From assembly GCF_004010195.1 (NCBI RefSeq), contig NC_057751.1:7184133-7248132 (forward strand): 64,000 nucleotides of DNA, given 5' to 3'. The stretch is from Chiloscyllium plagiosum (taxonomy: Eukaryota). Position numbers and translations under genes: made by a program. This document shows, piece by piece, positions 1 to 58,058 of the stretch (its first letter is position 1; each line of letters opens with the position of its first letter). The notes beneath the pieces are model-generated. The model saw only the letters and a list, made by a program, of their open reading frames with translations. It was not told where the DNA came from and made no database searches.

Positions 1-1037
1 AGAGGATCAAATGGCCGCCTCTTGGTATTATTTCCTAAAAGAGGAAATACTGCAGAAATAGGGAAAAAAGGGGAAGGTGCACTCATTCATTGAAAAGTCG
101 ACAGGACCAGACTGCCTCAAATGTAAAATGGTGATTTCAGCCAAGATTTACATCATTAGGAATTGGGGTCAGACCGTTCTTGCTGCTTGGTGTTCAATTT
201 GGTCAATGAGTGACGAAACAGATGCAGATTCTGAAACAAAAGTCACACCTATCCTGCAGACGGAAGCAAATGATTGATCTCTCCCTTGTTTGTGTGCAGT
301 GTGCTGTCAGACAGCTGTTTGTGGCAGGTTGAGAACAGCCATCAGGAACTTGGAACACTGCCTAGTGGCCTCCTGTCCTACTTGTTAACTAAGTGGGCCA
401 CAGCTTCTCTGCCGCTCTCCAGACAAAGTCCTCCACAGAGTGGGCAACCTCTCCCCTCCTCAAACCAGGGCACAGCCTTTAAATATGGAGAAACAGGCAG
501 CACAGCAGCCTCTCCGTCCACCTTGTAAACCGTCTAGTAACACTGTCTGACAGAGCACAGCAGCAATCAGGAGACATCAAGTTTCCCACAGATCGGTCAG
601 TGGCCAGCTGATGTTTCTGCAGTTCCCCAATTCCAAACAAACAGACTTTGCATCACAAAAGAAGTGCCATTTGATGAACCGGTCAGTAACAGCTCCCGAC
701 CCGATCAAATCAAACCAACCCTGAATCTACTATTCCCAGAAAAGTCGGAAGCAACCAGATGGCCGACTTGGATCTTAGACTCTCCTGTCGTTGCAAATTC
801 CTATCAGGCCATCTTAACACCCGATTTGCATTTGAACTCATTTCAGCGGAGGCTGAGGGGTACCACCCTACCCTCTTAAGTTAGAAAGGCTATGGGTTCA
901 AATCTCTCTCCAGAAACTTCAACGTAAGAAAGGGAGATTGGCACTCCACTGTAGCAATTAGGAGTACTGCACTCGCTTTTGGCCTGAGACCTGAAACGAA
1001 GGACCCCACCTCAGGTCGAAGTACAGGTTCCTATGGG

Positions 1038-1220
1038 GTTGAGAGTGTGGTGCTAGAAACGCACAGCAGGTCAGGCAGCATCCGAGGAGCAGGAAAATTG
1101 ATGATCAAGAGCTAATGCCCGAAACGTCGATTTTCCTGCTCCTCAGATGCTGCCTGAACTGCTGTGCTTTTCCAGCACCACACACGACTGCATCTGCATC
1201 CGCCTCCTCACTTTCGCCTA
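1038..1220. mobile_element. Palindromic Penelope terminal mini-element
   Basis: ~60-bp inverted arms (GCACAGCAGGTCAGGCAGCATCCGAGGAGCAGGAAAAT and its complement) around a partial GCCCGAAACGTC. Confidence 0.78.
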
Positions 1221-1254
1221 GACTCCTACGGATACTACTGAAAGATAAGTCAGG

Positions 1255-1510
1255 TCTTGGCAATGTACAGCATGGAAACAGACCCTTTGGTCCAACTTGT
1301 CCATGCCGACCAGATATTCTAAATTAATCTAGTCCCATTTGCCAACACTTGGCCCATATCCCTCTGAACCCTTCCTATTCATATTCCCATCCAGATGCCT
1401 TTTAAACGTTGTCGTTGTCCCAGCTCCACTATTTCCTCTGGCAGCTCATTCCACACGTGCATCACCCTTTGCATGAAAAAAGTTGCCCCTAAGATTCCTT
1501 TTAAATCTTT
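1255..1510 (-). mobile_element. CR1 3'-end fragment
   Basis: Reverse complement of the CR1 tail seen at 8.7 and 17.3 kb. Similar pieces lie at 31665-31763 and 36860-37092. Confidence 0.78.
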
Positions 1511-2239
1511 GGTTCAAAGCAATCGCATGTCACAAATACCATTGGAAATGTAATGATTTGATCGTTGATCATATTTTCTCCAAGACCTGGTCCATAAATT
1601 CCTTTGGGACATTGTGCAAGCTACTCTGTAAACTCCAGTTAAAAATCGTTGACCTTGGCCTTGAAAACCTGCCACCTTCTTCACAGTTGTAGCCCGATTG
1701 TAAGCTTACAGGCAGACGCATGAACTGCTGATACATATTCTGGATTGTTAGTGCGCACTGCTTTGCTCTACCATGATCTGCCCCATTTCACAAGACCAAG
1801 TTCAACACTGCTGAACAAAGGACATAATCACGACCAGTTTATTGGCTGATAGGGGAATCTTGCTGTGCACACTTTGCTGCCATGATCACTTGAAGAGCCA
1901 TAAATCTTTTGGGAAACGTTGTGAGGATGTGAAAGGCAAGTTGCAAATGCAAGTATTTCTTTGTATGCCTGCACCACTCTTCCTTCATCCACCCTGCACA
2001 TGGCACTCATCTCCTTACAGTGAGACTAGGCGAAAGTGAGGACTGCAGATGCTGGAGATCAGAGTCAAGATTAGAGGGGCGCTAGAAAAGCACAGCAGGT
2101 CAGGCAGTATCCGAGGAGCAGGAAAATAACTCGCGTGAATGCACATCGGTTCAGCAGACCCAGAAAACCACATGAAGGAAGGATTGGCCCAACTATTTAA
2201 TGGGGGAATAGATAAGCCAAAATAAGCCATGGGACTCAC

Positions 2240-2330
2240 CCTTGAGAGGTTCCTGCTCGTTCTGTAAGATGTCAATCAGGGAGTTCTCCAGTGAGTGCAT
2301 GTTGAACGTATCGTATGGGTGCGTCCATTC
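2240..2330 (-). CDS. CPEB2/3/4-subfamily second coding exon (91 nt; EWTHPYDTFNMHSLENSLIDILQNEQEPLKG)
   Basis: Acceptor tttgcag| at 2331 and donor |gtgagt at 2239; the phase 0 start matches the upstream exon. It resembles CPEB3 DRSRPYDTFNLHSLENSLMDMIRTDHEPLKG. The downstream RRM/ZZ exons were not found and probably lie left of the window. Confidence 0.92.
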
Positions 2331-4544
2331 CTGCAAAGGAAAAACATTTTCAGAAAAGAAACTATTAAACCGAGGAAGGAGATGGGAACAGCACAGAGGA
2401 TGCAAAGAAGTTACAATCACTCATTTTGATGTTACTAATCAGTGCTGATAGCACATTCCTTAAAACAAGTGCGTACAGCAAAATTGTTTTCCGTGGAAAC
2501 TATCTTTTACTTAGTTATTTCCTCTCCTCCCTGGTCATTGTGAACTTTTGGGGTCAGGGCCCATGGGTACCAGAAGCTCTGCATGGTGTCTGGATGGAGA
2601 CCAATCCTTGTGGGAGCCTGGAGGATGGGTCCATACCCCTTAATGCAGCTTTTCTCCTCACCAGAACACAGTCGAGTCCAAGGGTGAATACATGCCATTC
2701 TGGATTACTAAGTGCTTGTCCTTCACTTACTGCCCTTAATTCTGGCTTTGTCTCCAAGTGGAAACATTCTATACATCAACTTTCACCTTGACACTGCACA
2801 TCATTCCCTTATCTCATCAGAATGCCATCTGATCAGTCCACTCTCCAGTTGATCGGTGTTTCAAATAATGAAGGGAGGGTTTGGATAAAACAATTAAAGA
2901 CAAACTGTTCCCGTCGGCTCAAGGGTGTGGAGCCAGAGGTCATAGACTTGTGACTGACAAAAATGAAAGCATTGACAACTTAGTGGACATCATTTTTAAG
3001 TGTAGCTAGTACCTGGGACTGCATTGCTCCAGTGGATGCAAATTGCAAAAAAAAACACACACAGGATCTTTACCTGAAGGGGTAAAAAAGAATCAAAAGC
3101 CCACAGGGGAAAGCTAGAGGATGGGGGCTATGAGCTGTTGTTGAGAAAACCAGGAAAGAGACAATGAACCAAATGGTCATGTTTTCTGCTGTATCCATTC
3201 TATCATTCTACTTTCTTCCTCCTCCACTTTCCTTTCTGGCCTCAAATGATGTCATTTGTCGAATGAATGAGACCGATGAAAGCAAGTGCAATACAGCACT
3301 TTGTGAAAAGCACACAGGAGGCTTGTGATACTGAATAAAGTGGCTGAGTCACTGGTGAATAACAGAACCTGGCAGAGTTGAAGAAGAGGTTACAGAGCAG
3401 GAGGAGGAAGAAACTAAACACCAGCCAGCTCCCATCAGCAAGGCCAGTCACACAGCCTGTTCAGCAGCTTCCTCCCCTTTCTTGCTGAAGGTGTATTCTA
3501 GTTTATTCACCTTCTTTACCTTGACGGTGCTGGAGAGTACAGTCAATATATTCGATTTCGACGAACAAAATTGGTTAGGTGCAGAGGGGGCATGGATATC
3601 ATGGCTTTGGGGTGAGGGCCCAAGATTGAGTTGAGCAAAATTCAAGAGAGTTAGGCCAAGTGACCTCATTCTGCACTGTAATCCTATCCCTCTAGTCTGG
3701 TTACACAGGCACCTCGCATGACCTGGTACCACACACATTCGTTGCAAGAACACACACAGTATCAAATGATTGTTTTTGCAATGGGGTGGGGGTGGGGGAG
3801 GTGTTGCAAGCTATTAAAAACATTTCTCTCAGGGAGGCAGTGATTGACAGGACATGAGTATCCACCGGGGACTGATCAGAAACTTGAACCCTAATTTCCG
3901 CCTGCGACGACCCCTCAAGGTCAATTCCCAACAGACAACTGGAAACTCCATGTGAATCACCTCATTGCACACTGATTTGAGATCAAACTTGTGTGGTTCA
4001 ACTCAACCAATTCCATAAGTTTGCTGGATAAGTTACACTGAAGTCGTTTGGTTGAAAATGCTTCATATAGTTCTGTTAGACAAGGGCAGGCCAACGTGTC
4101 TGTCAGTGAAGGCAACACCTTCATGGGATGAGGTGTCCGCCCTCATAATGAAAGGCTGATTCAACCGCATCTACAAGATTGTTCTTCCAAGTAGCTAATG
4201 ATCTAAAGGCAATACAGCCCTTCTGGTACAGTAGTAATGTCTCTGTGGGCCAGGAGATCTGGTTCAAGGTTTTGGCAAGAGGTGCAGCTCGGACAGGCAG
4301 AAAAATTTACTTTGTGCAGAGCAACTCTATGCCTCGAAGAATGGTGGAATTGGAGAAAATTCATTATTTCAAAAGGAAACACGCTGATTTAAAATTGGAG
4401 AAGTAGGCCATTTGGCCCCTTGAGCTAGCTCCACCATTCCATGAAATCATGTGTAATAATCTGCTTCCATGCTATTTTCCTGCACTATCCCATATCCTTC
4501 AGTGTATTTTGGAACTTTGAACTGACAAAGAATAGGAGTGGAGA

Positions 4545-4746
4545 CAAATGCAGGTGCTGGAATCTAAGGAGACAAGCAGGAGGCTGGAAGAACACAGCAA
4601 GCCAAGGCAGCATCAGGTGGTGAAGTCCAAGTTCCACGTATAATCCTTCGTCAGGACTGTCCTGAAGAAGGGTTACACTTCTCCACATTGGCTTCTCCAC
4701 CTTCTGATGCTGCCTGGCTTGCTGTGTCCTTCCAACCTCCTGCTTG
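4545..4746. mobile_element. Palindromic Penelope terminal mini-element centred on TCAGGACTGTCCTGA
   Basis: Arms CAAGCAGGAGGCTGGAAGAACACAGCAAGCCA and TGGCTTGCTGTGTCCTTCCAACCTCCTGCTTG, with degenerate CTGA(A/C)GAAGG cores facing outward from the centre. Confidence 0.72.
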
Positions 4747-6197
4747 AAGAGCAGGAGGAGACCATTCAGCAAGATAATGGCAGATTTGCTCATGGTCTCA
4801 ACTCCATTTCCCCAAGTGTGCCACATACCCCTCTCCCGATAACTCGTGACTCACTTGCTTATCAAAAAACTAATGAACCAGCCTCCACTGCTTTCCAAGG
4901 AAGAGAATACCAACCACAAACAAACCACAAAGAGAACATTTTTTTTCTCACTGTCATCCTAAGTAAGAAGCCTCTAATTTTAAAACTGTCTCTTATTCTA
5001 GTCTCTCTCTGTTTAATGTCAAGAAGTCAATGTCGGGCTGCTTTCAGGCATTAGCATTTTCTCTGTCTCTGAGCCAAAGGTTCAACAAAATCGCTGTCTG
5101 GAAGATACAAATTTGATGAGCACCTAAGGGAAAGAAACTTTTAGAACTACAGAGGCTGAGGAACTAAATAGGAATGGATTAGGTTGCTGTACAGAGAGCT
5201 AGCTCCATTGCAATGACTCTCATTGAATTCAGGCAGACGTGGGTTTAAGTTCCATTCCTGAGACTTGGGCAAAGACTCCAGACTAAACACTGGCGCAATA
5301 CTGAGGGAGAGGTGTACTGTTGGAAGTGCATTCTTCAAGTAAGATGTTAACCAGAAACACTCTGATCTCTCCAGTGTGTTTGACAAAGATCTCAGGACAC
5401 TAAGCAAAGCAAGGTCATACCTTGGTCTACATATATTCCTGCCAACATGAAATAAAATACAGTCGGATTACCTGGTCATTTAACTCGAAGTATTTTGACG
5501 GATGCTGTGTGCAAACTGGCTCACGCACTTTTTACATGACAATGGTGCTTGCAGTTTTAAAAACGGTGCTGCATTAATACAAGTTTGCTTGCTTGTTCCC
5601 TCACAACCTGTCCCTTTGCATGAACCGGGTGAGCGAAATTGTGGGTGACAGGAGCATATAATGACATCTCTACTTGGATTTTTGGGCCAGCAACAAGACG
5701 TGGCTTGGGATAGAGACAATTTTCTGCAACTTAAATGTTTAAGTAGCTATTTGATAAGGATTTTCAAGTTGTAAAATGGCAGATATCATGGAGAGGCACT
5801 ATTTCCCATACAAAAGAGAATTGTAGAATAATTAAATTACAACTGTTCAATCGTGAAATTACAAAATGGTAACTGGTGGAAGGGTGGTGGAAGCCTGGAA
5901 CTTTCATTTACAAATGGTAGTTGATGCCCTATCAATTTTAAGTTTCAACTCCTGAACTCTTAGATTTTATTACACGAAGATTGTACAGGATGTGGGGCAA
6001 TGCCACTACCTAGGTATATTCTTATTCAAAAGCCAAGCAGGTTCAAGGGTCTGGACAGTGTCCTCCTATTTTTGAGGGACTTGCGAATAGGACAGGACTC
6101 GCGAACCCTAATCATGGAATTGGTACTTCTTTCTCCCGATGACACCTCACATAACAAACTTCTCATAGTGGTTTGGAAAAACTATGGGCCAGAAATT

Positions 6198-6384
6198 TCT
6201 CCTGTCATATGGTCTCAGGCTTCCCAAAGCATCAGTCCACACAGACCAAACTCTCCTGTCATATGGTCTCAGGCTTCCCAAAGTATCAGTCCACACAGAC
6301 CAAACTCTCCTGTCATATGGTCTCAGGCTTCCCAAAGCATCAGTCCACACAGACCAAACTCTCCTGTCATATGGTCTCAGGCTT
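6198..6384. repeat. Minisatellite: 54-bp unit x ~3.5 (TCTCCTGTCATATGGTCTCAGGCTTCCCAAAGCATCAGTCCACACAGACCAAAC)
   Basis: Units start at 6198, 6252, 6306 and 6360, with one substitution among them. This explains the repetitive ORFs in four frames. Confidence 0.97.
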
Positions 6385-8189
6385 GAACAAAGTTGTGCAA
6401 CGGAGCAGTGCTTCCAGGAAATCTTCTGGAAAAGCCGAGGTTTTAGCCAAATGGTGTGCTTGACTCGTGGTGACACTGAACTGCAGAAATAGTATTTCTG
6501 AGTGAGTACGTTTACAGCTCTAGTTGGGTGAGCAATAGACAATGCCAGCTTTATGAGACTGGAGTTATTCCTGTGTTATGTATTGTTGTCATGATGTGTA
6601 GGAGCCGGTGTTGGACTGGGGTGGTTATAGTCCAACAGGTTTATTTGGAAACACTAGCTTTCAGAGTGCTGCTCCTTTGTCAGGTTGCTATGGATCCTGT
6701 TGAGGATTCGAACCTGGGTCCCCAGAACATTATCTGGGTGTCTGCATGAACAGTCCAATGATAATACCACTGAGCCACTGCATCCCAATTCCATTACATT
6801 GCTGCCTAACCACTGCTGCTAAACAGAGGACACACACTCATGGAACAACCCAATATGCCTCTCTTGACTGTCCCTTTGGTGAGAGCCAACACAGAAATGC
6901 CAACAGCACGTGGTGCTTTGTTCGGCAGGGGGAAGCTCACAGCCATCAGGAAAATGCATTTGGCCCTCTCATACAGCAGACAGGGAGGCAGTTCCACACA
7001 TGTTCCTGCACCAATCCTTTGTTTCAACAATGAAATGGAATCAAATTGTTCTTTTTTTGGCCCCCAGTTATGTACTGGAGCATGCAGTGCTTTGTCACAG
7101 GGAGAGGCCAAGTCAGAAAACTGTACTTTTTGGAGATTGAACAGGCAAAGGTCTGTTTGAAGAAAGGAAAACACAATGCTTTGAAGTAAGACTATCAGGC
7201 CATTCTGGTTGCACAGTCATAGCATGGTATCATCCAACAGTCCATGAAACCTCTGCCAAATGTTTGGTAGCCCTCTCATTCGTGCCTTTAAAATGAGTGT
7301 ACTCTTACTTTACACACATCAACTGCAGGGAATTCCAACTCTGCTTCCCAAAACCTGGTGCTCATTACAAAAAACCTCCAGTCTTCCATATCTCAAGTCT
7401 CTATTCATATCTGACCACCATCCCCAGTAACACACCCAAGGACTGATGGTCTACAGCCTCACTGACTTTGGCCTGAATGCAGGCACCTCCCAGAAGCGAT
7501 CATTCCAAACTCTTCGCCATGACTTATCCTGGACAACTTTAGCACATTCCTGATCAAGAGCTTATGCTCAAAACATCGACTCTCCTGCTCCTTAATTGCT
7601 CTCTGCAAGGTAATGAAATGGGAACATCAACTGAGGAATGGAGAAAAGCAAAGCACCAGAGCAATTTAAATAGCCAATTCCCCATGTTATCTCCATGCTT
7701 TATCCAACAGAAAAAACAAATGATGTTGTCATGATCACACTGTTGTTTGACAGCTTACCACGTGTAAACGGATTGTAGCATTTCCTACATTGCAATAGTG
7801 CTTGTACTTCAACAGGACTTAACTGTGTCACCACATTTGACTTGTTTGTTTCGAAAATTGGTGAGTTATTTATGCAACATCTGTCATCCATGTTAATGTT
7901 TCAAAAGAAGTTTTATAAATGGACAATTTAAAAGAGCTCACTTATAATTACAAATTTCGTATAAAATTATGTCCTGGTACATTTGACCCGGTGGCCTTTG
8001 ACCTGCGCACAGTACTGACAGGAAGGAAATTAAGCAAAATGCTATGTGCCTTTCAGACACAAAGGAGAACTATGACCAGAGGAGCTGGAGAGTTAAGGCA
8101 ATCAGCACACAGAAGCCAAGTGCAACCAATCAGAAACAGGAGAGGGAACACAGAAAATTTCTTCCGAGCTGCAAAACTGTGCAAGGAAA

Positions 8190-8838
8190 ACTCAAGGCAC
8201 GAAAGAGCTGGGTGTTTTCGCTTGGTTTCATTGCTCAAACCTTTGAGTACACGAGTTGAGACATCATACTGAGGTTGTACAGGACATGGATGACGCCTCT
8301 TCTGGACTACTTTGTGCCCTTTTGATTGCCCCACTTTAGGAAGGATACTATTAAATTGGAGAGGGTTCAGAACAGATTTACCAAGATGTTGCCAGGAATG
8401 AAGGGCTTGAGTTATAACACAGGCTGTAAAGGCTGGGATGTTTTTCACTGGAGTGTATGAGATTGAGGAGTGACCATATAGAGGTTTATAAAATCCTGAG
8501 GGGCAGAGATAAGGTGAATAGCAAGGGTCTTTTCCCTCGGGTGGGGGAGTTCTGAACCGGGGGCATATCTTTAAAGGGAGAGGAAAAAACGTTTTAGAAA
8601 GGATACGAGGCGCACAAAGTGTGATTGGTGTGTGGAAATGAATTACCAAAGGAAGTGGTGAATGCAGAAACAGTCACAACATTTCAACAATATTTGGATC
8701 AAAACACAAGTAGGAACGATTTGGAAGGATATGGGCGAAACACAGGCATGTGGGACTAGTTTAGTTTGGGAACATGGTTGACTTGGACTAGTTGGACCGA
8801 AGGGTGCATTTACATGATATATGACTCCGTGACTCTAA
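8190..8838 (+). mobile_element. CR1 3' fragment
   Basis: Similar to the 3' part of the 15.5-17.3 kb CR1; ends in a GACTCC/GACTCT tail. Confidence 0.8.
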
Positions 8839-9919
8839 GTGGTCAAATCCTATTCCGGCATCATGACCAAAGTCAGAGATAAGGGTGCCTTGCTAATGGT
8901 AATTGTACCAGTGAAATTTAAATGGTGAAAGCTATTGTCAGTTAAGGCTCATGTATCCTCTTGAATAAAGTGCAGCACTCTGTCGATCTGTATAGTTACA
9001 TGATGCCATATTTGTGCATGGGGCAATGTGAGGGCTTGTGGTTGCACAAGACCCAGCTTTGTTCTGTGGACAACAGAATTTAAAGTGAAATTTGTCTTCT
9101 TGTTGGAAATATCCTTGACCTGCTAGTTCTGCAAATCTGAGTGTTGGTTCGAATTCTGTTTGAATTAATAGCGACACAAAGTGGAACCCTGTTGCCAATG
9201 TCTTCAATTGGGGGTGATTCAGTAAATTTGGTTAGGTTGATTTCCAATGCAGGGATTGTAACAATTGGCGATAAAATACTCATGAATCATGCAGATTTAC
9301 CTATTCTAACACGAGAACTCGATTGTCTGTTTAGCCGTCTCTGGCATGCTTTTCATTCCAAATTCTGAGAAAATATTCTGACTTGATTTTTTTTCAACCA
9401 ATGCATCAATTGTCTGCACTTCTCAATAAGGAGTTGGATTGGCATCTATCTGATTGTTATACTAATAATCCTCTCAGCATTACAAGACAACAGGTCTGCT
9501 TTGGCCCTGCATCCCCCTGATTAAATAGCCTGAATTCAAATAATTCATGAGTAGTACTGTATGGATATGTACACCCAGCCATTCCAGCACAAATTTTTGG
9601 CAAATACTGTAGTGCAGAACTGGATATGCTTTCTTTTAGATTAGATATAAAACCATCTGGACTCTCAGGTGGACCCATATATTAAAAAACAAGATGTCAT
9701 GGAACTGTTACAAAGACAAGGGTGCTGGCAGTATATCCTTCATGCAGTCACCAAAGTCAGAAGTCACACAACACCAGGTGATAATCCAACAGCTTTAGCT
9801 GAAATCACAATGATGTGTTGGACTATGAGCTGGTATCATGTGAATTTGATTTTGTTCACCCCGGTCCAACACCATACCTCCACATCAGCCAGTGACCAAT
9901 GCCTGTCCCTCAATCATCA

Positions 9920-10080
9920 CCACCAGAACACAGATTATTTGGCCATTTCCACGTTTTCTTTGTGTGAGCTTGCTGTGTGTGAACAGTGAGTGTACACTTC
10001 AAAAAGCACTCGATTGGATGTAAAGCACTCTGGAAAGCACAAAGTTGTCAAAGACACCATGCAAATGCAGGCTCTTCCTT
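9920..10080 (+). mobile_element. Old DeuSINE-like 3' fragment
   Basis: cttgctgtgtg...cttcaaaaagcact..attggatgtaaagcact motif. Similar decayed copies lie at ~1850-1960, ~5240-5600, ~13580-13745 and ~30240-30540 (-). Confidence 0.45.
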
Positions 10081-12136
10081 GCTTTAAACCATTCAGAGCA
10101 ATACCTGTTTGCTCCAACTTAGTTTCCTGTCTACCAGCCAACTTTCTTTCCATGCTGTTGCATTTGCCCTCCTGCCGTCTGCCCGAGTTTCTCCAACTGG
10201 ACTCCTGTGGGACATGTGATCACACACCTTCTGCAAGTTAACATGGCACGGTTTATTACATTCTCCCCCCCCGCCCAACTTCACCAACCCAACCAGGCAA
10301 ATCTCCCAACAGACAATGAAAACACTCTCAAACACAACTTGCCTTCAACTGATTAACTCTTCCATTTCTAAATAAGCAGCAATTCCCTTTTAAATCTCAT
10401 GCGGCTGCCACATTTGCTATTTAAAAAAAAAGCTTTTGGCTCTAATCAACGTCTCGAGCGGGCTGCTGACAAGTGAAAATATCAAACCAAGAATTTATCC
10501 AGTGTTGGCAGCTCTGTATAATGCAGACATTTTCAACAGTTTTAGCACAGGAAGCTCTAAGTTTTATTACAAACACAACCAAATATTCACTTGAGGGCCT
10601 AGATTTAGGCTGCATGACCTTGGCTGTGATGTCAAACACTGATTAATTCACTTGCAAGCATTTCCAATTGCTTCATGTGAGATAACTATGTTGTCTGCAT
10701 CTGAGGAGAGACAATTTAGTCTGCAGTCCATTCTCGGATTTAGGAAGTGAGAAACCCTAGGCACAGTGCCCCAGACTCAGTCTAGGGAATGATTTCTGAA
10801 GGGTCATATGTTGCCACACCAGTGGGTAACTGCTCTGAGTGATATTGAACTTCAGCAGAAATAGAGAAGATATGACAATTGCGATTTATCTCGCACAAGG
10901 AATTTAAACATCCCATGACACTTCACAGAGAGGTGTGTAGTGAAACAAAAATTAACACCAAGCCACATGAGATATTTTGACAAACGACCAAATGTTTGAT
11001 TGTCTAAGGAGCACATTTTAAACAGTATTTCCGAAAAAGAGGAGGAGGGGAAAAGAGGAGGAGATGTTTGGGAGTAGGGCCAGAAGTGATTTGGGGGAGT
11101 TCACCAGAGCTTTGGGATCAAAAGTGGATGAAAGCAGAGATACAAACCATGGGTCAGATCAATTAGCTGACCCACAAAGTCAAGAGATGGTAGACTGCTC
11201 ATTTCTTTAAGCATTATAAAGTGTGAACAAGGTTACAGAAATAGGCAGGATAGAAGCCACAGAGGGATTTAAACACATGGATAAGAACTAATTGGCAAGA
11301 CAGAGGACAAGGGGAATTGGAAGCAAATGGTGTTAGCAAACATATCTAAGATCTGCACAGCAGCCCAATGGGGCAAACTGACGCTTAAGTTGGACGATAA
11401 TCATCAGCAACTGGCTATTCATCCAGCAGATGCATCACAGCCAAGCTCAAAGCAGCCCTCAACAGTGCTTATGAAAGCAGTGACAGGATGGAGATCAGAA
11501 ACAGAGCTGACCTACTCGCTGGCCCAGGGATCCAACATAGTGCATTCTGAACCACCCATTCAGAGTTACTTGGCTGTCACAAGCAACATAATATGTAAGC
11601 TTTATGGGCCACATGATTCACTGCAGAAAAACAGTCCTTTCCTCACCTTCAGACACACATCAATGAGCACCTGTGTTTCCCAACTCCCTGGATGCTGGTA
11701 CATAAGCTATAGAAAATTTTCTCTGACCTTCAGATTTCTGGCGAGACACTGCATCCAATAAATATGCAATCCTCATGTTAATTTTTTCTGAAAGAAAATG
11801 TTCCTGCTTCCGTGCAGTTGTCCTTAACACCTTAATCACCAAGTTCATTGGAAAGGCAGGTTTACAGGCAAACTTCCAAGTTCCTCCTGCACCTCTCTGG
11901 ATTTATTCCCACAAATGTCTGAGGCTGTAGTTGCTTTTATGTTTCTTTTTTGCAGCCCACGAGTGCCATTATGCACAACAGAATGACCATACCACACTAA
12001 AAACACTGTGACAATTTTTGTTTTAAAAGCTAGTAACCATCACTATGCATGTAGCTAATGGAATATTTACAAGCAATGCTGAAAAATGTGTTGCTGGAAA
12101 AGCGCAGCAGGTCAGCCAGCATCCAAGGACCAGGAG

Positions 12137-12171
12137 AATCGATGTTTCGGGCATAAGCCCTTCTTCAGGAA
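12137..12171 (-). ncRNA. Minimal hammerhead motif, sense to the CPEB-like pre-mRNA (GUC changed to AUC)
   Basis: UUC-CUGAAGA-A-GGGC-UUAU-GCCC-GAAAC-AUC-GAUU. Confidence 0.55.
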
Positions 12172-12960
12172 CGAGGAAGGTGTGCCAAGCGGGCTATGAT
12201 AAAAGGTAGGGAGGAGGGACTTGGGGGAGGGGCGTTGGGAATGCGATAGGTGGAAGGAGGTTAAGGTGAGGGTGATAGGCCGGAGAGGGGGTGGGGTCAG
12301 AGAGGTCGGGAAGAAGATTGAAGGTCAAGAAGGCGGTGCTGAGTCTGAGGGTTGGGACTGAGAAAAGGTGGGGGGAGGGGAAATGAGGAAGCTGGAGAAA
12401 TCTGCATTCATCCCTTCTGGTTGGAGGTTTCCTAGGCAGAAGATGAGGCGCTCTTCCTCCAGGCATCGTGTTACCATGGTCTGGCGATGGAAGAGGCCAA
12501 GGACCACCAACCCAACCTCCACTCCCAGCACTTTCTTTTGCAACCGTAAGAAATGCAAAACTTGCGCCCACACGTCCCCCCTCACTTCCCTCCAATGCCC
12601 CAAGGGATCCTTCCATATCCATCACAAATTCACCTGCATCTCCACACACATTTATTGCATCCACTGCATCCGACGTGGCCTCCTCTACATTGGGGAGACA
12701 GGCTGCCTACTTGCGGAACGTTTCAGAGAACACCTCTGGGACACTCACACCAACCAACCCAACCGCCCCGTGGCTCAACACTTCAACTCCCCCTCCCACT
12801 CTGCCAAGGACATGCAGGCCCTTGCCCTCCTCCATCGCCAGACCATGGCAACACGACGCCTGGAGGAAGAACGCCTCATCTTCCGCCGAGGAACCCTCCA
12901 ACCACAAGGGATGAATGCAGATTTCTACAGCTTCCTCATTTCCCCTCCCCCCACCTTATC

Positions 12961-13056
12961 NNNNNNNNNNNNNNNNNNNNNNNNNNNNNNNNNNNNNNNN
13001 NNNNNNNNNNNNNNNNNNNNNNNNNNNNNNNNNNNNNNNNNNNNNNNNNNNNNNNN
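12961..13056. other. Assembly gap (96 N)
   Basis: Run of N inside one arm of an inverted repeat. Confidence 1.
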
Positions 13057-15499
13057 GGATGTTGCCTGACCTGCTGCGCTTTTCCAGCAACACATTTTTC
13101 AGCTCTGATCTCCAGCATCTGCAGTCCTCACCTTCTCCTATTTACAAGCAATGCAAGCCATCAAAGTTGAGGCAGCAGGGGGAGAATAGGGAGAGCAAAA
13201 AGGGATTGAATCAACATGGAGTTGGATGGGGAAATAAAGCACAGTGCCCCCTATAGTGTTCACCGCGTTCCAAAGGCATCAAGAGCATAGACAGACACGG
13301 TGTGCAATGAACATAACTGTGGAATGGGGGGGGGGCTGTACTTTATTCATGTAATCTGCCATTTGTTACAGACTGCCCAAATTCTATCAGTGTGTTCAGG
13401 AATCGTTATTTCTCCTCCCCCTTCCACAATGCAACAAGCATCTCAGGTGCTGTCTTTCTGGTCAGATAATATCTGAGGCGCCAGCCTGTCCTCTCAAGTG
13501 AGCACCAAAGAACCTGCGACCTGTTCCACAGATGAGCCCTCAAGTCCTGGCCAATATTTATCTCTCAACTCGCATTCTCGAAACTGGCTATCCAGTCACG
13601 GTCACAGTCCTGTTCATGGAAACTTGCCGAGAACACATCGCTTCACACGAGTTGGCCTCAAAACCAAGATATTCAATTGGCTGTAAGGCAGTACTGGACA
13701 CTCAAAGGTCAGGGGAAAAATAATGCAATTAAAATGCAGCCTTTTTTTTCAAAGGACCAAGTTCAAACAAGGTCCCTCCACCCCTGATTATCAGTCATGC
13801 CACTCCAAGTGCAAAGTCACCAGAAATCCAGAGTTAGCAACCCACACATCACATAAGATAATGTGTAATGAAAAAAATATACAGTGACTTCAAAGAGCAA
13901 CAACATCTTGCAATTATGTACTTCATTTAAAACAGTAGAATATCTCTGGATGCTTCAAAGGAGCGGAATCTGAGTGACACACTTAAGGAGATATATGAGG
14001 ACAGCTGACCAAAAGCATGGCCAACTTTGTAAATGTTAAGCAAGTCTTAAAGAAGGAGAGACAAAGGGAGGATAAAGGAATGAGAGAGGGAATTCTAAAG
14101 CTGAAGGCATCGCCACAGAGAATCACTGACGTAAACTTACTGTCTTGAGAACTCTGTTCCAAGACACATGAAAAAAATCTGCCTTCAAACTGTGGGAGTT
14201 GTTTCATCAAATGCATTGTACAGCGCAGTAGGTCATAGGTTCAGTCTTGCCTCCTCCTACGAAGGATTAGTGGTCACTAAAGTTCAGTTGACAAACAATC
14301 TCAGTGTCCACCTACTGGAAGCAAGTGGCAGAGTGGGGAATGACAAGACCCCCGTTCGAAATTCTTAACCAATGATCTCGACCATGCCAAGAATTGGGTT
14401 CAGTGCCTCGAACCAACGCTCAGCAAATTTGCCTTCTAGCATAAAGCGAGGGATCTTTGGTCAATGCACGGGATATTTAGCTGTCTGCCTCTGTATATCA
14501 CACAAAGATAGGAGGAAAAGATAACAAAGGCTGCAAGTCAAATTAGGAGCACTGGCAGGTACGAGTCACACACCTCCTGCCCCATTATGAAGCACATTGC
14601 CAAAATGTCACTATTTTATTTCCAGCAGATGCTGGAAATCTAAAATAAAAATAAACATTGGAGATACCCAACAGGTCAGGCAGCATCTGTGCAGAGATGA
14701 AAAAAGGCATTCCTATTTCAAGACTCAAATACAAGCTGAAAATGACGCTGCCCGTTAAATCCACAAGTTACAATTGAAGCTCTCCTTTTCAAAAGACTTG
14801 CAAGGAATTTCAAGTCAAGTGCAAAGAGCAGTTTTATCACTGTAGGAACTTAGGCTTTTCTCAGCGACCCAACTTAAATTTGGAAATGTTGAGTTCTCGC
14901 CATTATCCTCCTCTCTGCCTTATTTTCCCTATTAATGAAAGGGTTCCAATGGTGGGGTACAATCCCTTTTGTTAATCATCAATCACCACATCCTCAATTT
15001 CATTACATCATCAATGGCATTCGAACTGAAAAAGGACCACACCTCCACTGCTTCTGCAAATGAACTGCAGTTGTACCAGTTCTTTTGCTAATTCAGGCTA
15101 CTCTTCCACAAGTTGAGCGTGACCTACAATCGAGAAACTGTGTCACCCTCGATTGGTTTCCCGCCATCTCGATTTGACAGATTGATATCTCACTGCAGTT
15201 TAATGTCACGGCTTCAGGCCTTCAAAACACCAGATAAATCAATGTCCTGGATTCAGAAATGTGCCAAATGAAATCCTGCAACCCTCTCCTGCAGACAGGA
15301 AAATGCAAAGATGCAAATCTGAAAGAAACCCAAAGATACTTGTCAAGCCGTACATGCCTTGCAGAACAAAAATGGTACAGGTTGTGTGTTTTGGAAAGAA
15401 TTTGGGCTAAATCTGAAGGATAAACATAGCTACCCTCTGCTACTATTGTAAACACCTAGTCAATTGTGTTGATTGATGTGGCCTTGGGTTTTATTTTTG

Positions 15500-17335
15500 G
15501 AAACCATAAAAGCAACAATCTGCATTTGTATGGAAGATATAGAATGTAGGGAAATAGATGGTGACATCTTGAAAGTTTTCCATATTATAGAGGAGGAAGT
15601 GTTGAATGTCTTGAAATGCATAAAAATAGCAAAGTCCCCAGGACCTGATCAGGTGTACCCTCGAACTCTGTGGGTAGCTAGGGAAATCATTGCTGGGCCC
15701 CCGCTGAGATATTTGTATCATCAATAGTCACAGGTGAGGTGCCAGAAAACTGGAGATTGGCGAACATGGTGCCACTATTTAAGAAAGATGGTAAGGACAA
15801 GCCAGGGAATTGTGGACAGATAAGCCTGACGTCGGTGGTGGGCAAGTTGTTGGAGGCAATCCTGAGGGACAGGATGTATTTGGAAAAATGAGGACTGATG
15901 AGGGATAGTCAACATGGTTTTGTGCGTGGGAAATGATGTCTCACAAATTTGATTTTTTTTTAAGAAGTAACAAAGAGGATTGATGAAGACAGAGCAGTAG
16001 ACATGATCTGTATGGACTTCAGTGAGGCGTTCGACAAGGTTCCCCATGGGAGTCTGGTTAGCAAGGTTAGATCTCATGGAGAACTAGCCATTTGGATACA
16101 GAACTGGCTCAAAAGGTAAATGACAGAGGGTGATGGTGGGGGGTTGTTTTTCAGATTGGAGGCCTGTGGCCAATGGAGTGCCACAAGGATCGGTGCTGAG
16201 TCCACTACTTTTCGTCATTTATGTAAATGATTTGAATGTGAGCATTAGAGGTACAGTTAGTAAGTTTGCAGATGACACCAAATTGGAGGTATAGTGGACA
16301 GTGAAGAAGGTTGCCTCAGATTACAACGGGATCTTGATCAGATGGGCCAATGGGCTGAGTGGCGGCAGATGGAGTTTAATTTAGATAAATGCGAGGTGAT
16401 GCATTTTGGGAAAGCAAATCTTAGCAGGACTTATACACTTAATGGTCAGGTCCTAGGGAGTGTTGCTGAACAAAGAGACCTTGGAGTGCAGGTTCATAGC
16501 TCCTTGAAAATAGAATCACAGATAGATAGGACAGTGAAGGATGTTGTGAAACTTGAAAGGGCTCAGAAAAATTTGTAAGATGTTGCCAGGGTTGGAGGAT
16601 TTGAGCTATAGGGAGAGGCTGAATGGGCTGGGGCTGTTTTCCCTGGAGCATTGGAGGCTGAGGGGTGACCTTATGTAGGTTTATAAAATCATGAGGGACA
16701 TGGATAAGGTAAACAGACAAAGTGTTTTCCCTGGGGTCGGGTAGTCCAGAACTGGAGATCCTAGGTTTAGGGCGAGAGGGGAACGATATAAAAGATACCA
16801 AAGGGGCAACTTTTTCACGCAAAGAGTGGTACGTGTAGGAATGAGCTGCCAGAGGAAGTGGTGGAGGCTAGTACAATTGCAACATTTAAAAGGCATCTGG
16901 ATGGGAATGTGAATAGGAAGTGTTTGGAGGGATATGATTAGATTAGATTCCCTACAATGTGGCAACAGGCGCTTCGGCCCAACAAGTCCACACCGACCCT
17001 CCACCCAGACCCATTCCCCTACATTTACCCCTGACAAATGCACCTAACATAATGGGCAATTTAGCATGGCCAAGTCAACTAACTTGCACATCTTTGGACT
17101 GTAGGAGGAAACCAGAGCACCCGGAAGAAACCCACACAGGGAGAATGTGCAAACTCCACACAGACAGTTATCTGAGGCGGGAACTGAATCTGGGTTCCTG
17201 GCGCTGTGAGGCAGCAGTGCTAACCACTGAGCCACCATGCTGCCATGCTAGCAGGTGGGACTAGATTTGGTTGGCATATCTGGTCGGCATGGACAAGTTG
17301 GATCGAAGGGTCCACTTCCGTGCTGTACATCTATG
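15500..17335 (+). mobile_element. 5'-truncated, decayed CR1-clade LINE interrupted by a SINE
   Basis: RT motifs KSPGPDQVYPR, MDFSEAFDKVPH, GVPQGSVL, KFADDTK and QMEFNLDKCEVMHFGK; the CR1 3' end resumes after 17245. Confidence 0.9.
16936..17244 (-). mobile_element. tRNA-derived SINE (HE1/V-SINE type)
   Basis: Minus-strand 5' GGCAGCATGGTGGCTCAGTGGTTAGCAC (A box), degenerate B box, (AATCT)n tail. Confidence 0.88.
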
Positions 17336-17924
17336 TGGCAGCTTTCAAATAGGAAAACATTCCCAACTGTCTTTGCAGGAACCCTAAATTATAGAATTGT
17401 GAGGGCAGAGTCAGAAATGGAGATATGGGACTAAAAGTTAGGTCAACGAGGTGGATTTTAAGCAATGTCGTGAAGGTGAAGAAAGAGAGACAAAGAGAGA
17501 GCAGATGGGAGAGGTATTTCCAGAGATGAAGGCCTTGGATGACGGAAACACGCCACTAATGAAAATCAGGGATGCCCGAGAATTGGATGGGTGGAGGATA
17601 TTATGGAAGATGGTGGAGCAATAGCATATTAAACTCAGGAGAAGCAATAGAACAAAATATGTGTGTGGATAACTGAAGGAAGATTCGTTGAATGTTTACT
17701 GCAGTCCATGCGACAGTCACGTTGTTGCCTTTTCATGCTGAACATAGAACTCATGTGACCCCTGCTCATATTTTCTGTTCCCCAGCTATGCTGCAAACGA
17801 GAGATCAAGTTGAAACCCCACATCTGTGCATCCCACACCAAGCACTGCATCTACTCCAGGTGACTGGAGATGATCATTTCTCATGAGGCCTTATGTAAAG
17901 ATGTGCAGACCTTGGAGAGAATTT

Positions 17925-18262
17925 TTTTTCTTTATTCATTCACTGAGTGAGGGTGCCACTGGCTAAGCAGCGTTTATTGTCCATCCCTAATTGCCAAAAA
18001 GGCTGTGGGTCTCGAGTCACCTGTTGGTCAGGCCTGTCGGTGAGGATGGCAGTTTCCTTCCCAAAAGAACACTAGTAAACCAGATGGGTTTTTCCGACAA
18101 TCGACAATGGACTCTGGTCATCATGAGACTCTTATATCCAGATTACTTTCTTCAAATTCAGAATCCACCCTCGGCTGTGGTGGGATTCAAACTGGGGCTC
18201 CCCAAATATGATCTGGCTCTCTGGATTAACAGTCCATCCATACCACTGTGCCATCACCTCCC
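17925..18262 (-). mobile_element. Second tRNA-derived SINE family (degenerate)
   Basis: tRNA-like head on the minus strand at ~18180-18262. Related heads lie at ~6700-6786 and 63962-64000. Confidence 0.55.
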
Positions 18263-18521
18263 CAAATCAATCATAGCTCACTGGACTATTGCTAGGATGA
18301 TGCTTTGTCCTCCCAAAGAAAATAAGCAAAACTAGCCCGACATTCCATAGGGTTACGGATGTGAACACGAAAATATTTCAGTCATCCAAATGAGACAGGT
18401 GGAGGAACAGGTTCAAAGGGCCATATGACCCCCTGTTGCCCCTCTTTCTTGTTATGTTGAAAACAAATCACAGGTACTTGCACCATACTGTTAAATTGAC
18501 AAACTGTAAAACGTGGCTTAC

Positions 18522-19247
18522 CTGATGGTGGGGCAGCCAGTTGCTGTTGCCATCTGTCCTCAACGGGTTCTCTTCCATCCACGGTTTCGAAGCGAATGCC
18601 GGGCGGCCCCTGTTCAGTTTTGGAGGCACCATCATGTGACTGGAATAGGACCTCTTGGAGGAGCAGGAAGGAATGGAGTTTGAGATGCCCATTACTCCAG
18701 TTGACCTTCTCAGTCCCCTCCCGCAGTTATTGCTGACACTGCCCCAGCCGCCACTCCCTCCTCCGGTCGGCTGTTGGTGGCTGCCCCAGTTCAGAGCCCT
18801 GAAGGTCTGCTGCTGCTGCTGCAGGCTGTAGCTGTTCCTTTGGGAGGCGGAAGAGGTGGTGTTGGTGCCTTGGTGAGGGTGGTGTCCTAGAGGCGATCTC
18901 CTGTGCTGCTGCGCCAGCCCCATCTGCTGCACCGAGGGGAAAGTCCCTCCAAAGAGGGGCCCCAGGTGCACCATCTTGGGTAGCAACATGGCAGTTGGCA
19001 GGACTCCTTGCTGGAGTAGGCTTTCCTCACCGGCCTGGCTCGTGGACCATCCCAGAGCGTTGAGTGTCGAAGTGCTGCCTCCTTGCTCTTGCAGAACCAA
19101 GCCGGCCGGGGCAGGCGGGCAGTCGAGCTGGGAGGAGGAGGAGGTGGACCCATCGCCGCAATTGACCTCAGAACTTTTCAAGGACTCCAGGTTTTGCTCC
19201 AGATAGGGGCAGCAAACTGGTTGCCTTTTAGTGTCATTCTGGAGCAT
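18522..19247 (-). CDS. CPEB2/3/4-subfamily RNA-binding protein, first long coding exon (N-terminal disordered region, 242 codons)
   Basis: Translation carries CPEB2-4 N-terminal motifs: FGGTF, QQHRRSP, SQRNSY, GRGLRR, VPPK, WMEENPLRTD..N.LP..Q. It ends phase 0 at CAG|GTAAGC (donor 18521). No symbol is given because the paralogue identity is uncertain. Confidence 0.88.
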
Positions 19248-19399
19248 GTCTGGATTGGCAAAGGAAGGGTGGTGGGGGGGAGGAGGAAGGGGATGGGAGG
19301 GGGAGGTTTTTTTTTTGCCTTTCTCTCAACCCCCCCCCTCTCTGTCTCTCTCTTGCTTCAGGAGGGGGTGCAGAGGAAATAACAGTTGGCAGAAAGTCA

Positions 19400-20900
19400 G
19401 TGCAGTTCGTGGCGTGGGACGTCGATCTCAGCTTTGCCCTGCCCAGCGCAGCGATGTTGTTAACAGCTGAGTCGCCCCAGTCTCCCAACTAGAAAATGCA
19501 CATCAAAGAGGGAAGGGGGTGGAAAAAGGGATGATAGATAAATAAATAAATAAATATATAAATAAATAAATCGAACGCGTCCGTACCAGCCAATGCAACG
19601 AAAACGAAAGCACAGACACACCGCCACAGAAAGGCGATCACCACCAGTTTTGTTTTTGTGTGTGTTACGTGAGTGCTTTTTTCTCTCCCCCCTTCCCACT
19701 GCCTCCTCCTCAGTTCCTCATCGATCGCGTCAAAATGGAATAAGCAAGATCACAAGATGATGTTTAATGACCTGCTCATCGCCTCTTTACTCCGGAACTG
19801 AAGCTCTGACACTCCGAAGCATTCTGGTTGCTCTGGATTTTTTCTGTCTGTGTGTGTGTGTGTGTTTTTTCCAGTCCTGCACCTGACCTGCGCAGGGCAA
19901 TTTTGGCCCCAGTTTCCACTTTGCGGCAATAAGAGACACCCAATTCCGTCTTGTTTCTGACCCCACCTCCGAGCCCAGCCTTTCTCCCTCCCCTTTATAA
20001 TTTCATTGCAATTTCTCCTTCACCCCACCTTTCCTTTCCTAAATGCTTTCCCGATTGGTGCTTTGAACCGAATGTTTTAAGAAACATAAATGGGTCGAGG
20101 GCGGATTATTTTTATTTTTTTGGGGGGGGGTGGTTTTGTTCCCCTGTCCAAATCCCACAGTCTCTCATGGGCTGGCAGCTGTCATTATTGTGAGTCGGGG
20201 GAGGTCTTTTTTTGCAAGGACGCGTGGAATCTGAAACATCTCGTCTCCCGAGCGTGCAGCGCAGGCCATTCGGCCCACTACACCGATGCTGCCGCGCCTT
20301 CCTCCACTCGCTGGAGTTGCTCCCATTTGCTCAGCAAAAGTGCAACTTTTTTGGCCGGTGTTGCGAACGCCAAGTGTAAGCAGAGGGTGCTGGAAATACT
20401 CAGCCCCCCCCTCCCCTGCGGTGCAGCCTGACCGGCTGAGCATTCCAAGTGTTTTCTGGCTTGTTCCCTTTCAACGTGACCTTCAGTCGATCTGTTGTTT
20501 TTGTTTCCCCCCCCCCCCTTCTTGCCTGCCCTCGCCTCGCCTCTTTGCAAAACTTTCTCCCTCAAATGCGTCATTCATTCACCTTAACCGCTCCCTGTTC
20601 CGCATTCTCAGAGCAGTTTGTCTTTATTTTTTGCAAAAAAACGAACAATTTGTGTTTATTTTTAGTTTCCCCCGACCCACTGTGTGACACAAGGCTACGT
20701 TCTATCATTTGTTGCAGTCATGCATTCACCTCTGGAAGATGCACAAAGTTGCAGTTTTGTTTTTGACACAAATAGCAACGTAAGGTGCTGGTGAAACGGA
20801 CCCCCACCACACACACACCCGAACACCCATGCAAATTCTCAAGCAGAGTACAATGCAGGATTGGAGGAAAATGTGCGGAATCGTGCTGTCATGGCCTTCA
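19400..20900. promoter_or_regulatory. CpG-rich 5' leader/promoter region of the CPEB-like gene
   Basis: CpG density is visibly higher than in the flanks, there are no recognisable transposons, and it lies directly upstream of the CPEB ATG. It contains (AAAT)n at ~19538-19572 and (TG)n at ~19849-19865. The TSS cannot be determined. Confidence 0.6.
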
Positions 20901-35658: not shown

Positions 35659-35817
35659 TTAGTCACTCCCAGAATCCTCATAACCTGCCTGGAGTTCTTC
35701 CTGGTCATCGTCTCGCTCAGGATAGTTCAGAATCCGGCGGTTTGCTTGGATCAGATATTGCTGCTGTCTGAAGTAAACTTTTAGGGCCCCTTTGATGGCA
35801 ATGAAGGCAATCCCGCC
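35659..35817 (-). CDS. march5l: MARCH5-like terminal exon 6 (GGIAFIAIKGALKVYFRQQQYLIQANRRILNYPERDDDQEELQAGYEDSGSD*)
   Basis: The acceptor follows a (CT)n/poly-C tract; TAA stop at 35661-35659. Exon lengths sum to 879 nt = 292 aa plus stop. Confidence 0.94.
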   Translation of the reverse strand, partial: GGIAFIAIKGALKVYFRQQQYLIQANRRILNYPERDDDQEELQAGYEDSGSD

Positions 35818-35825
35818 CTGATCAG

Positions 35826-35870
35826 AGGGGGGGGGGGGGAGAGAGAGAGAGAGAGAGACAGAGACAGAAA
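35826..35870. repeat. Poly-G plus (GA)n microsatellite forming the polypyrimidine tract of the last MARCH5-like intron
   Basis: A G run followed by (GA)n, 8 nt from the acceptor. Confidence 0.9.
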
Positions 35871-37703
35871 GTCAATCTTGATGCACAGCAAGATAGTTGC
35901 AAAGTGCTATGGATCCACAAAGCTGCTTCTCATAATGTTCAGCCTGACTCTCCTTGTTTCATAAGGCCATTCATCTATACAGCAGCAATTGGAATTTCAC
36001 AATTCAGCAGAGAGCCATTTGTGCATTGGACGACTCTCTGAATGATCTCTCCGCATCCCATTATGCTGGCTTTCCCCACAGTTTTACTGTTTTCCCTTTT
36101 TTGTTGAATATTTTTCCACAGCACCTTAATATTTGGATTCTGCATTCTGTTACTGTCACTGATTCAGCAATTCAAGTCCTGACAATTTTCATCCAATCTC
36201 ATCTTTCATTGTTGTATCGATAACCTCCCAATTAACAAGCCGCTCTTCAGTGAAAATTGTTCGCGTGCCCCTTTGTGTCCCTCATCAAAAACAACTTCCG
36301 GATTCCCTTCACCCCAATTCAAAATTCTTTGGTTGAAACCATCCTTTATCTTTGAGAATGTTTGAGCCCATGCAACATTAGTTTTCTCGCATTTGTTAAG
36401 AAAGAAACCCTTGACACAAGGATACAGAAATTCTTGAGAACTATTGATCTGTCTAACAGGTTTCACTTGGAATTATCCTCAAATCAACCTCAGATGAATT
36501 TACAGTGGTTCAGACTGAACATAAAATCTTGATTTTTCTGATTTTCTTTTCCCGTCCATGCATTGGCTCTGAATGCAACACAAGCCACTTGACCACAAAC
36601 CTCTGATCTTGCCCCAAGTAGGCCTTTTGTGAGGAATTAACTATGACCATCAGCAGGATATTTGGCGCTGGGGAAATTACAAGCGATCCTAAGCTATGAC
36701 ATACCTGTTCCCTTTTGAGGAGACAGGAGACTATTGCAATGGGATTACACTCCAAGAGGTATAGAAATCTAACTGCCATTATCCAAAGGCTTAGCTGACA
36801 ATATACCTGCTGACTTACACAGCCGCCCAAGAGAGATTACAACCAATGCAGAGTAGTTGGAAGGCATAATTTTGAATTGAGAAGAGAAAGATTGAGAAGG
36901 GATCCGAGGGGCAACTTTTTCACAAAAAAGGTGTTTCATAAACCAGAGAAAATGGTAGATGCAGGTACAGTTTCAAAATGTAAAAGACATTTGGATAGGG
37001 ACATGAATGAGGAACATTCAGAAGGATATGGGCCAAATGGGACTAGTTTAGTTTGAGAAACTTGGTCAGCATGTTTCTGTGCTGTATGACTCATTAACAG
37101 GCTGATATTAAAATCTGCACAGTATGAAACTATATTCTCTCAACTTGAAAGGATATCACTGAAATGTATGAAGATTGTAAAGAGCTTGACAGGACAGGTT
37201 GTGAGAGGTTGGTTCATCCAGGTGGAAAAGGTTGTATAGGCCTTTGAGAAGAGCTTTCCACATTGACTGGGCATGAATTCTTCTATTAGACAACAAAGAA
37301 GCTGAGAGGTGAATGATGGCTCATCTACTTTTAGTGGTGCTGGATGAGGAAAGAATGGTAGACAGTAAGTGAAGGAACCAGGTATTCCCCTTCCATCAAT
37401 ACCATGAGGTCACTGGAATGGAAAATCCAGTGTGCTTCGCATTCAGCATCAGCTTAGGCAACATACTCAAGGTGGGCTTGAATGATGCATTCCTACAATA
37501 AAAGATACTACCCAAGTGACTTCTGTTTGCACTGAGAAAATGCAAAGCCTTAAAGTCAACCTCACTCAAGCTGACTAGTTAAAGCACTGGACGTTCCAGA
37601 ACGACCAAAGACCAATGGTGCAAATGAAATCGAGTCCCGGCACAAGTCAGCGCATTTGGGAGAGCAAGGGAGAAAAATCGAGGGACGTGGTACATATACT
37701 CAC

Positions 37704-37870
37704 CAAGATGGTTCGCTGGAGGTTGGAGTGAACACCACTGAATATCAGCTTGCCAACCATGCTGGAGATTGTGGGGAACACAAGGGCACCACACAAGATG
37801 CGGGAGACAGACATGTGGTCACTCTGATAGCTAGTCTCAGCTGGTACACGAGGAACGGGGCATCCAAAAC
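37704..37870 (-). CDS. march5l: MARCH5-like exon 5 (GFGCPVPRVPAE...SRILCGALVFPTISSMVGKLIFSGVHSNLQRTIL)
   Basis: gtgcag| acceptor, |gtgagt donor, 167 nt. Confidence 0.95.
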
Positions 37871-38819: not shown

Positions 38820-39112
38820 GGTTGGAAGTTTGCTCGCTGAGTTGGCAGGTTCGTTTTCAGATGTTTTGTCATCATGCTAGGTAACATCATCAGTGAGCCT
38901 CCGGTGAGGTGCTGGTGTTGTGTCCCACTCTCCATTTATGTGTCTTCGTCTCTTAAGGTGGGTGACATCATTTTTGTTTTTTTTGTCAGAGGTTGGTAAA
39001 TGGGGTCCAATTCGATGTATTTACTGATGATGACAAAACAAACCTGCCAGCTCAGCGAGCAAACTTGCAACCTGAACCTCAACCTGAGCTACAATTCTTC
39101 TTAAAAAAAATT
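38820..39112. mobile_element. Miniature palindromic Penelope-derived insertion (same family as the 56-57 kb element), 10-bp TSD
   Basis: Arms GTTTGCTCGCTGAGTTGGCAGGTT and AACCTGCCAGCTCAGCGAGCAAAC; AAATAACCAT at 38810-38819 and 39113-39122. Confidence 0.8.
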
Positions 39113-39197
39113 AAATAACCATCTCAAATCTCTTGGCTTCCTGTCTATAGTGACAATTCAGTGATTAGTGATTAATGGGACCAGCCTGGAGTCTCAC

Positions 39198-51750: not shown

Positions 51751-51848
<98 letters not shown>

Positions 51849-53251: not shown

Positions 53252-53431
<180 letters not shown>

Positions 53432-56132: not shown

Positions 56133-58058
<1,926 letters not shown>

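Follow-up and report, generated by a model that had tools for sequence, protein, structure and literature searches.

Vertebrates are said to have four CPEBs (PMC9465852, PMC11965684, PMC12415542). A stretch of 64,000 nucleotides (nt) from the shark Chiloscyllium plagiosum (NC_057751.1, positions 7,184,133-7,248,132), called the window here and used for all exon coordinates, raises the question whether sharks and rays possess a fifth. An earlier note on this DNA had proposed that it contains two in-phase exons of a fourth CPEB2/3/4 ohnologue, located in the sister segment of the CPEB3-MARCH5 region. Our analysis shows that the gene is a real fifth CPEB of sharks and rays, conserved and apparently undescribed. 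We consider it, with a probability of about 85%, to be the member of the CPEB2/3/4 subfamily that arose as its fourth copy in the genome duplications, probably with CPEB3 as its partner, with predicted binding to U-rich cytoplasmic polyadenylation elements (CPEs) and predicted repression that has fewer on-switches.

The window holds the 5' part of an intact CPEB gene

Both exons are located on the minus strand. Exon 1 (19247-18522; 726 nt) encodes the low-complexity N-terminal domain (242 amino acids (aa), aa 1-242), starts with an ATG, ends at a GTAAGC donor and is preceded by an in-frame stop at 19328; its product aligns with the N-terminal domain of CPEB3 at about 32%. Exon 2 (2330-2240; 91 nt, aa 243-272) lies between a pyrimidine tract with a CAG acceptor and a GTGAGT donor. 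The splice sites of both exons are canonical, and the exons are joined in phase 0 across an intron of 16.2 kb (2331-18521). A search with the exon-1 protein, covering 5260 candidates, yielded four longer proteins; the top one is 100% identical over the exon. It is an intact RefSeq protein of C. plagiosum with 572 aa, named 'CPEB2-like' (XP_043537208.1, P0003), in which both exons are spliced directly together (242/242 residues identical for exon 1, identical codons for exon 2). Coordinates, splice sites and identity to P0003 thus confirm the two in-phase exons. The window holds the 5' part of the gene, and the remaining exons lie beyond position 1. Window positions 1-2239 contain neither an optional exon nor exon 3, and no vestige of an upstream in-frame extension was found. 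The ESM Atlas gave no usable match for aa 1-275.

P0003 contains the domains RRM_7, RRM_1 and CEBP_ZZ (ZZ 69.1 bits, cut-off 29.8), which are encoded by exons outside the window, and the Cys/His positions of the ZZ domain are present. The downstream RRM and ZZ exons on which the earlier note had made its proposal depend are intact in this database protein. The tandem RRMs match the CPEB4 structure at E 1e-117 and score 397 bits to CPEB4 (2mki) versus 183 bits to CPEB1 (2mkh), which assigns the protein to the CPEB2-4 subfamily. When four invertebrate-type outgroups are included, it groups inside the vertebrate CPEB2-4 radiation (support 83/94).

In the RNA-binding domain, 19 elasmobranch sequences agree with each other at 96.7-100% and with CPEB2-4 at 84.0-87.2% (P0153 and P0051 were left out of this comparison because of a different domain length). 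The new CPEB is thus below the 96-99% that the domains of CPEB2-4 share with each other; the level of about 96% describes the similarity of the three genes that mammals share and does not define a clade. At 27 of 243 domain sites the new CPEB differs from all 18 CPEB2-4 sequences, and four of these sites (349, 350, 392 and 506) are invariant in the 18 CPEB2-4 sequences and in 17 outgroups.

The gene is conserved in sharks and rays

Orthologues were found as 26 proteins in four 90% clusters and one Amblyraja model, together representing 18 named sharks and rays. They are labeled CPEB2-like, CPEB3-like or hypothetical in the databases; the name 'CPEB3-like' had been expected from automatic pipelines, but most models are named CPEB2-like. 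Three Logan proteins (564-566 aa) are whole skate-like orthologues on contigs of 2.0-2.1 kb, and a whole protein on a contig of this size points to a spliced mRNA in a skate-like animal.

For the full-length protein search the best 120 of 1645 matches were analyzed. Among the 116 other matches, 83 were nearest to CPEB3, 30 to CPEB2 and one to the new clade (Amblyraja), and two had no N-terminal match. Furthermore, 360 proteins were screened for 14 clade-typical residues, which showed that 27 elasmobranch-clade proteins match every covered position, all others at most four. No bony-fish or chimaera orthologue was present among these best 120 of 1645 matches or the 360 screened proteins. In a search against 50% representatives the clade was seen only as a whale-shark exon-1 fragment, and bony-fish orthologues could sit inside the CPEB2/3 clusters. 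The gene has probably been lost in bony vertebrates. Since no fish orthologue was found, the age of the gene has to be taken from synteny and trees. The 'CPEB5' of ray-finned fishes mentioned in the earlier note is the orthologue that one would expect, should it exist, but we found neither a paper nor a sequence: searches for 'CPEB5' and its variants and for CPEB2-like with shark returned only unrelated literature or none, subscription journals being outside the search, and the protein matches listed contained no such sequence.

Separate CPEB3 proteins were found in 12 of the species that have the new CPEB, on another contig in 11 of the 12. Distinct accessions are listed for CPEB3 and CPEB4 in C. 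plagiosum, for CPEB2-4 in Hypanus and Hemiscyllium and for CPEB1-4 in Amblyraja (Table S1 of PMC11965684; columns taken from the PDF layout and cross-checked against the Amblyraja-containing protein matches). A separate CPEB3 locus, as presumed in the proposal, is thus annotated in C. plagiosum itself. The same survey covers 571 species including 11 chondrichthyans, and the rows of the latter do not contain the new gene (PMC11965684).

The gene probably separated before cartilaginous and bony fishes diverged

The main tree was calculated from 26 vertebrate proteins and 530 columns, after the aberrant termini of four isoforms had been trimmed. The new clade is recovered with 100/100, and CPEB3 of sharks and bony vertebrates form a group without the new gene (96/91). 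A tree in which the new gene was forced together with chondrichthyan CPEB3 was rejected in the approximately unbiased (AU) test (p=0.037), and only 24 of 1000 bootstrap trees contained this grouping. Shark and bony CPEB3 are united by common residues at 20 sites where the new gene, CPEB2 and CPEB4 differ; three of these sites lie in exon 2, and there the new gene keeps the state of CPEB2/CPEB4 while all CPEB3 carry another. The AU test and the shared sites indicate that the split took place before the divergence of cartilaginous and bony fishes, a result that is weaker when outgroups are included. In the trees the new gene belongs to none of the CPEB2, CPEB3 or CPEB4 clades; a position inside one of them had been named in advance as evidence against a fourth ohnologue. 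A shorter linker in front of the RRMs is common only to the new gene and CPEB3. The stem branch of the new gene has a length of 0.59-0.63 versus 0.06-0.09 for CPEB3, which is in line with the faster evolution reported for copies on beta segments (PMC10115646).

Synteny points to the sister segment of CPEB3-MARCH5

In 12 of 12 comparable species the contig of the new CPEB also holds a MARCH5-like gene, and the two accessions are often neighbors; the true MARCH5 shares one contig with CPEB3 in Heterodontus and Latimeria. In the MARCH5 tree the MARCH5-like clade (100/99) includes copies from chimaera, lungfish, coelacanth, bichir, teleost and reptile, with the MARCH5 of sharks and mammals outside it, showing that MARCH5-like predates the split of cartilaginous and bony fishes. 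In the skate, Cpeb2 is located on LER1, Cpeb4 on LER11, March5-1 on LER15 and March5-2 on LER35; LER15 (chicken 6), LER35 (chicken 22), LER1 and LER11 (chicken 13) represent 1-alpha, 1-beta, 2-alpha and 2-beta of linkage group I/Q (PMC10115646). If, as we infer, March5-2 is the MARCH5-like neighbor, the new CPEB fills the one empty slot of this quartet. MARCH5-like thus assigns it, indirectly, to one of the paralogous segments that derive from this ancestral linkage group. Synteny and trees together support a sister segment of CPEB3-MARCH5 with a fourth CPEB2/3/4 ohnologue, and the likely partnership with CPEB3 rests mainly on the synteny. We regard it as highly probable that the gene stems from the allotetraploidy of jawed vertebrates, with skate LER35 (= chicken 22) as its beta chromosome and LER15 (= chicken 6), the chromosome of CPEB3 and MARCH5, as the partner, and that it first changed rapidly and was strongly conserved thereafter.

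The chromosomes concerned show some further features. In the white shark a single contig of 122,117,421 bp encodes CPEB3, the new CPEB and MARCH5-like (P0009, P0477 and P0491); two paralogous chromosomes may have fused in this lineage, or the assembly may have joined them. MARCH5-like is itself an ohnologue, with copies in sharks, chimaera, lungfish, coelacanth, bichir, teleosts, tuatara, turtles and squamates; the MARCH5 trees built contain no such copy from a mammal or bird, and a literature search for 'march5l' found no paper. Human TIA1 is located at 2p13. The accessions of TIA1 in C. plagiosum, Stegostoma, Amblyraja and Pristis are about 100-340 numbers away from those of the new CPEB (Table S1 of PMC11965684), and TIA1 is probably encoded on the same small chromosome. 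The skate annotation uses the label 'Cpeb4-3' (PMC10115646), which suggests that several skate genes are placed in one CPEB family, and the new CPEB may be present there under a numbered name.

Alternative origins

Several points weigh against an origin of the new gene as the genome-duplication partner of CPEB3. The trees include neither CPEB2 nor CPEB4 of sharks and no cyclostomes; CPEB4 was represented by four partial isoforms. The best tree separates the new gene and CPEB3 from CPEB2 and CPEB4 with weak values of 76/73 without outgroups; with four outgroups, the pairing with CPEB3 reaches 35/68 and the monophyly of CPEB3 only 71/92. Site patterns are distributed 3:1:3. In the white shark, CPEB3 is present on the same contig as the new CPEB. 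Synteny in the other species was deduced from same-sized contigs, and the identity of March5-2 with the neighbor in the window is likewise deduced. Furthermore, MARCH5-like is arranged in tandem with the new CPEB in the window, whereas human CPEB3 and MARCH5 are arranged head-to-head.

The explanation that survives best beside the genome-duplication partner is a duplicate older than the shark/bony-fish split that is not the ohnologue of CPEB3, for instance a CPEB4 or CPEB2 copy that moved beside MARCH5-like. A tree that groups the new gene with CPEB4 withstands the AU test (p=0.28), bootstrap trees pair the new gene with CPEB4 in 14% and with CPEB2 in 10%, and the long stem branch makes its placement unsure. 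However, such a copy would have had to land next to precisely the MARCH5 paralogue, on the only quartet chromosome without a CPEB, and the linker deletion is common to the new gene and CPEB3, so that we regard this history as improbable. Somewhat less credible still is a fast-evolving CPEB3 duplicate that is specific to cartilaginous fishes and landed beside MARCH5-like. It would explain why a bony-fish copy is missing, and the restriction to elasmobranchs among the matches listed, the common contig with CPEB3 in the white shark and the low monophyly value of CPEB3 with outgroups all agree with it; but this topology is the one rejected by the AU test and nearly absent from the bootstrap trees, the 20 sites that unite shark and bony CPEB3, among them the three exon-2 sites in the CPEB2/CPEB4 state, contradict it, and MARCH5-like itself is older than the split.

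That the gene is simply shark CPEB2 or CPEB3, as the RefSeq names 'CPEB2-like' and 'CPEB3-like' imply, is hardly conceivable given the distinct CPEB3 in 12 of the same species, the distinct CPEB2 and CPEB4 accessions and its own fully supported clade. As a candidate CPEB3 orthologue the gene was rejected, being located outside the CPEB3 clade and not beside the true MARCH5. A decaying pseudogene, in which the 27 deviating sites of the RNA-binding domain would reflect lost constraint, is equally hard to conceive: the reading frames are open, the domain is 96.7-100% identical in sharks and rays, which separated about 286 million years ago (PMC10115646), and whole proteins are encoded on transcript-sized contigs. 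The protein conservation itself implies a dN/dS well below 1.

RNA binding is predicted to be kept and regulation to be reduced

The new CPEB was compared with its paralogues, for which CPE RNA binding, recruitment of CCR4-NOT and phase separation are described (PMC9465852). In CPEB4, 20 residues contact UUUUA (PMC4083092); in the new CPEB 18 of them are identical, the other two are changed conservatively (E131D, I144V), and both hinge residues are kept. CPE binding is predicted from these contacts, and changes beside the pockets for the first and the fifth base could tune it. The LE(N/S)SL export motif of CPEB2-4, the function of which has been shown for CPEB3 (PMC3458550), is present in exon 2 as LENSL. 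By homology, it is very likely that the tandem RRMs would clamp UUUUA, as part of U-rich CPE signals in 3' untranslated regions, and that LENSL would drive nuclear export.

The optional microexon of the B region, which carries a PKA/CaMKII site, is absent in 26/26 models of the new CPEB, and at least one optional exon is present in 8/8 elasmobranch CPEB3 checked. The serine at position 420, a site preferred by PKA/CaMKII in CPEB3 (PMC4767366), is replaced by alanine in 20/20 aligned sequences. N-terminal serine/threonine-proline (S/T-P) sites number 2-6 in the new CPEB (18 sequences), which is the chance level for its composition and no significant depletion, 9-12 in shark CPEB3 and 15-32 in CPEB2/4, where they are enriched 1.6-2.3-fold. 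This chance level speaks against an active loss of switches, as does the fact that annotation could miss a rare neuronal microexon. The number of S/T-P sites governs condensate dissolution and activation (PMC9465852), and a protein with few of them would be a less easily activated repressor.

The new CPEB would then repress translation by recruiting CCR4-NOT as its paralogues do, and would be less readily switched on since it lacks the PKA/CaMKII site of the microexon and most sites of the Cdk1/ERK type; we consider this plausible, though slightly short of an even chance. The new CPEB also has more cysteines than CPEB3, and since thiol control is known for CPEB2 (PMC4627054), a comparable control through these extra cysteines may be speculated. 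More tentative is the idea of a regulator rebuilt after the second genome doubling, which would have kept the CPE surface, lost both the kinase switches and the neuronal microexon, and acquired the new residues S349, G350, R392 and V506 and a Cys-Cys pair in RRM1; such a protein might act in elasmobranchs as a constitutive or thiol-gated repressor, competing with CPEB1-4 for common mRNAs.

Comparison with known systems

Vertebrate CPEB3, which provides the best-scoring vertebrate matches of the new CPEB (best 120 of 1645), has the same domain order, alignable N-terminal motifs, LENSL, the short linker before RRM1 and a MARCH5 paralogue as neighbor. In contrast to CPEB3, the new CPEB has a shorter N-terminus (about 310 aa vs 375-460 aa), no optional exons, alanine for S420, fewer S/T-P sites (2-6 vs 9-15) and more cysteines, and its RNA-binding domain is only 85-87% identical. 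With CPEB2 and CPEB4 it shares RRM_7, RRM_1 and CEBP_ZZ together with the conserved RNA contacts of CPEB4 (18/20) and both hinge residues; it forms a clade apart from these two, which are located on the other two quartet chromosomes in the skate and carry 15-32 S/T-P sites.

The retention of ohnologues in cartilaginous fishes is a recognized pattern: 19 are kept in chondrichthyans and lost in bony fishes, for example wnt6b and cspg5 (PMC10115646), and the new CPEB would follow the same pattern. No CPEB is named in the main text of that study, and the gene may already be among its 68 differentially retained ohnologues (PMC10115646). What is new is the fifth CPEB itself, with its predicted function. 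The fifth paralogue completes a one-to-four duplication of the CPEB2-4 subfamily and implies five CPEBs in the ancestor of jawed vertebrates. Its database names should be corrected, since CPEB2 or CPEB3 orthologue sets could otherwise be contaminated. As it is conserved in nature and lacks the microexon and most S/T-P sites, it allows a comparative test of CPEB condensate control, and if the gene does encode a rebuilt regulator it would be a natural experiment on the purpose of the CPEB2-4 switches.

Neighboring genes and further features of the window

Upstream of exon 1, a CpG-richer region (19250-20750, minus strand; CpG observed/expected 0.56-0.72 vs 0.33 for the whole window) likely comprises the 5' untranslated region and the promoter of the new CPEB. 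The long intron contains repeats, among them a 54-bp tandem repeat with 3.5 copies (6198-6384), and an assembly gap of 96 N (12961-13056). An Rfam scan of the window detected no family.

The MARCH5-like ohnologue (35659-47980, minus strand) has six exons (47980-47940, 42469-42267, 41270-41140, 39381-39198, 37870-37704 and 35817-35659); this complete gene and the MARCH5 tree bear out the march5l-type neighbor that had been recognized from its residues. The centractin gene ACTR1 (48580-63257, plus strand; ATG at 48580) was identified by its match to alpha-centractin, and its end was not found within the window. An ACTR1 exon differs from the solved alpha-centractin at 10/71 residues (counted from the alignment), and the gene is presumably of the ACTR1B type. 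The start codons of MARCH5-like and ACTR1 are located head to head at a distance of 600 bp (47980-48580), with several CCAAT-type boxes between them, and this intergenic stretch is likely a shared promoter.

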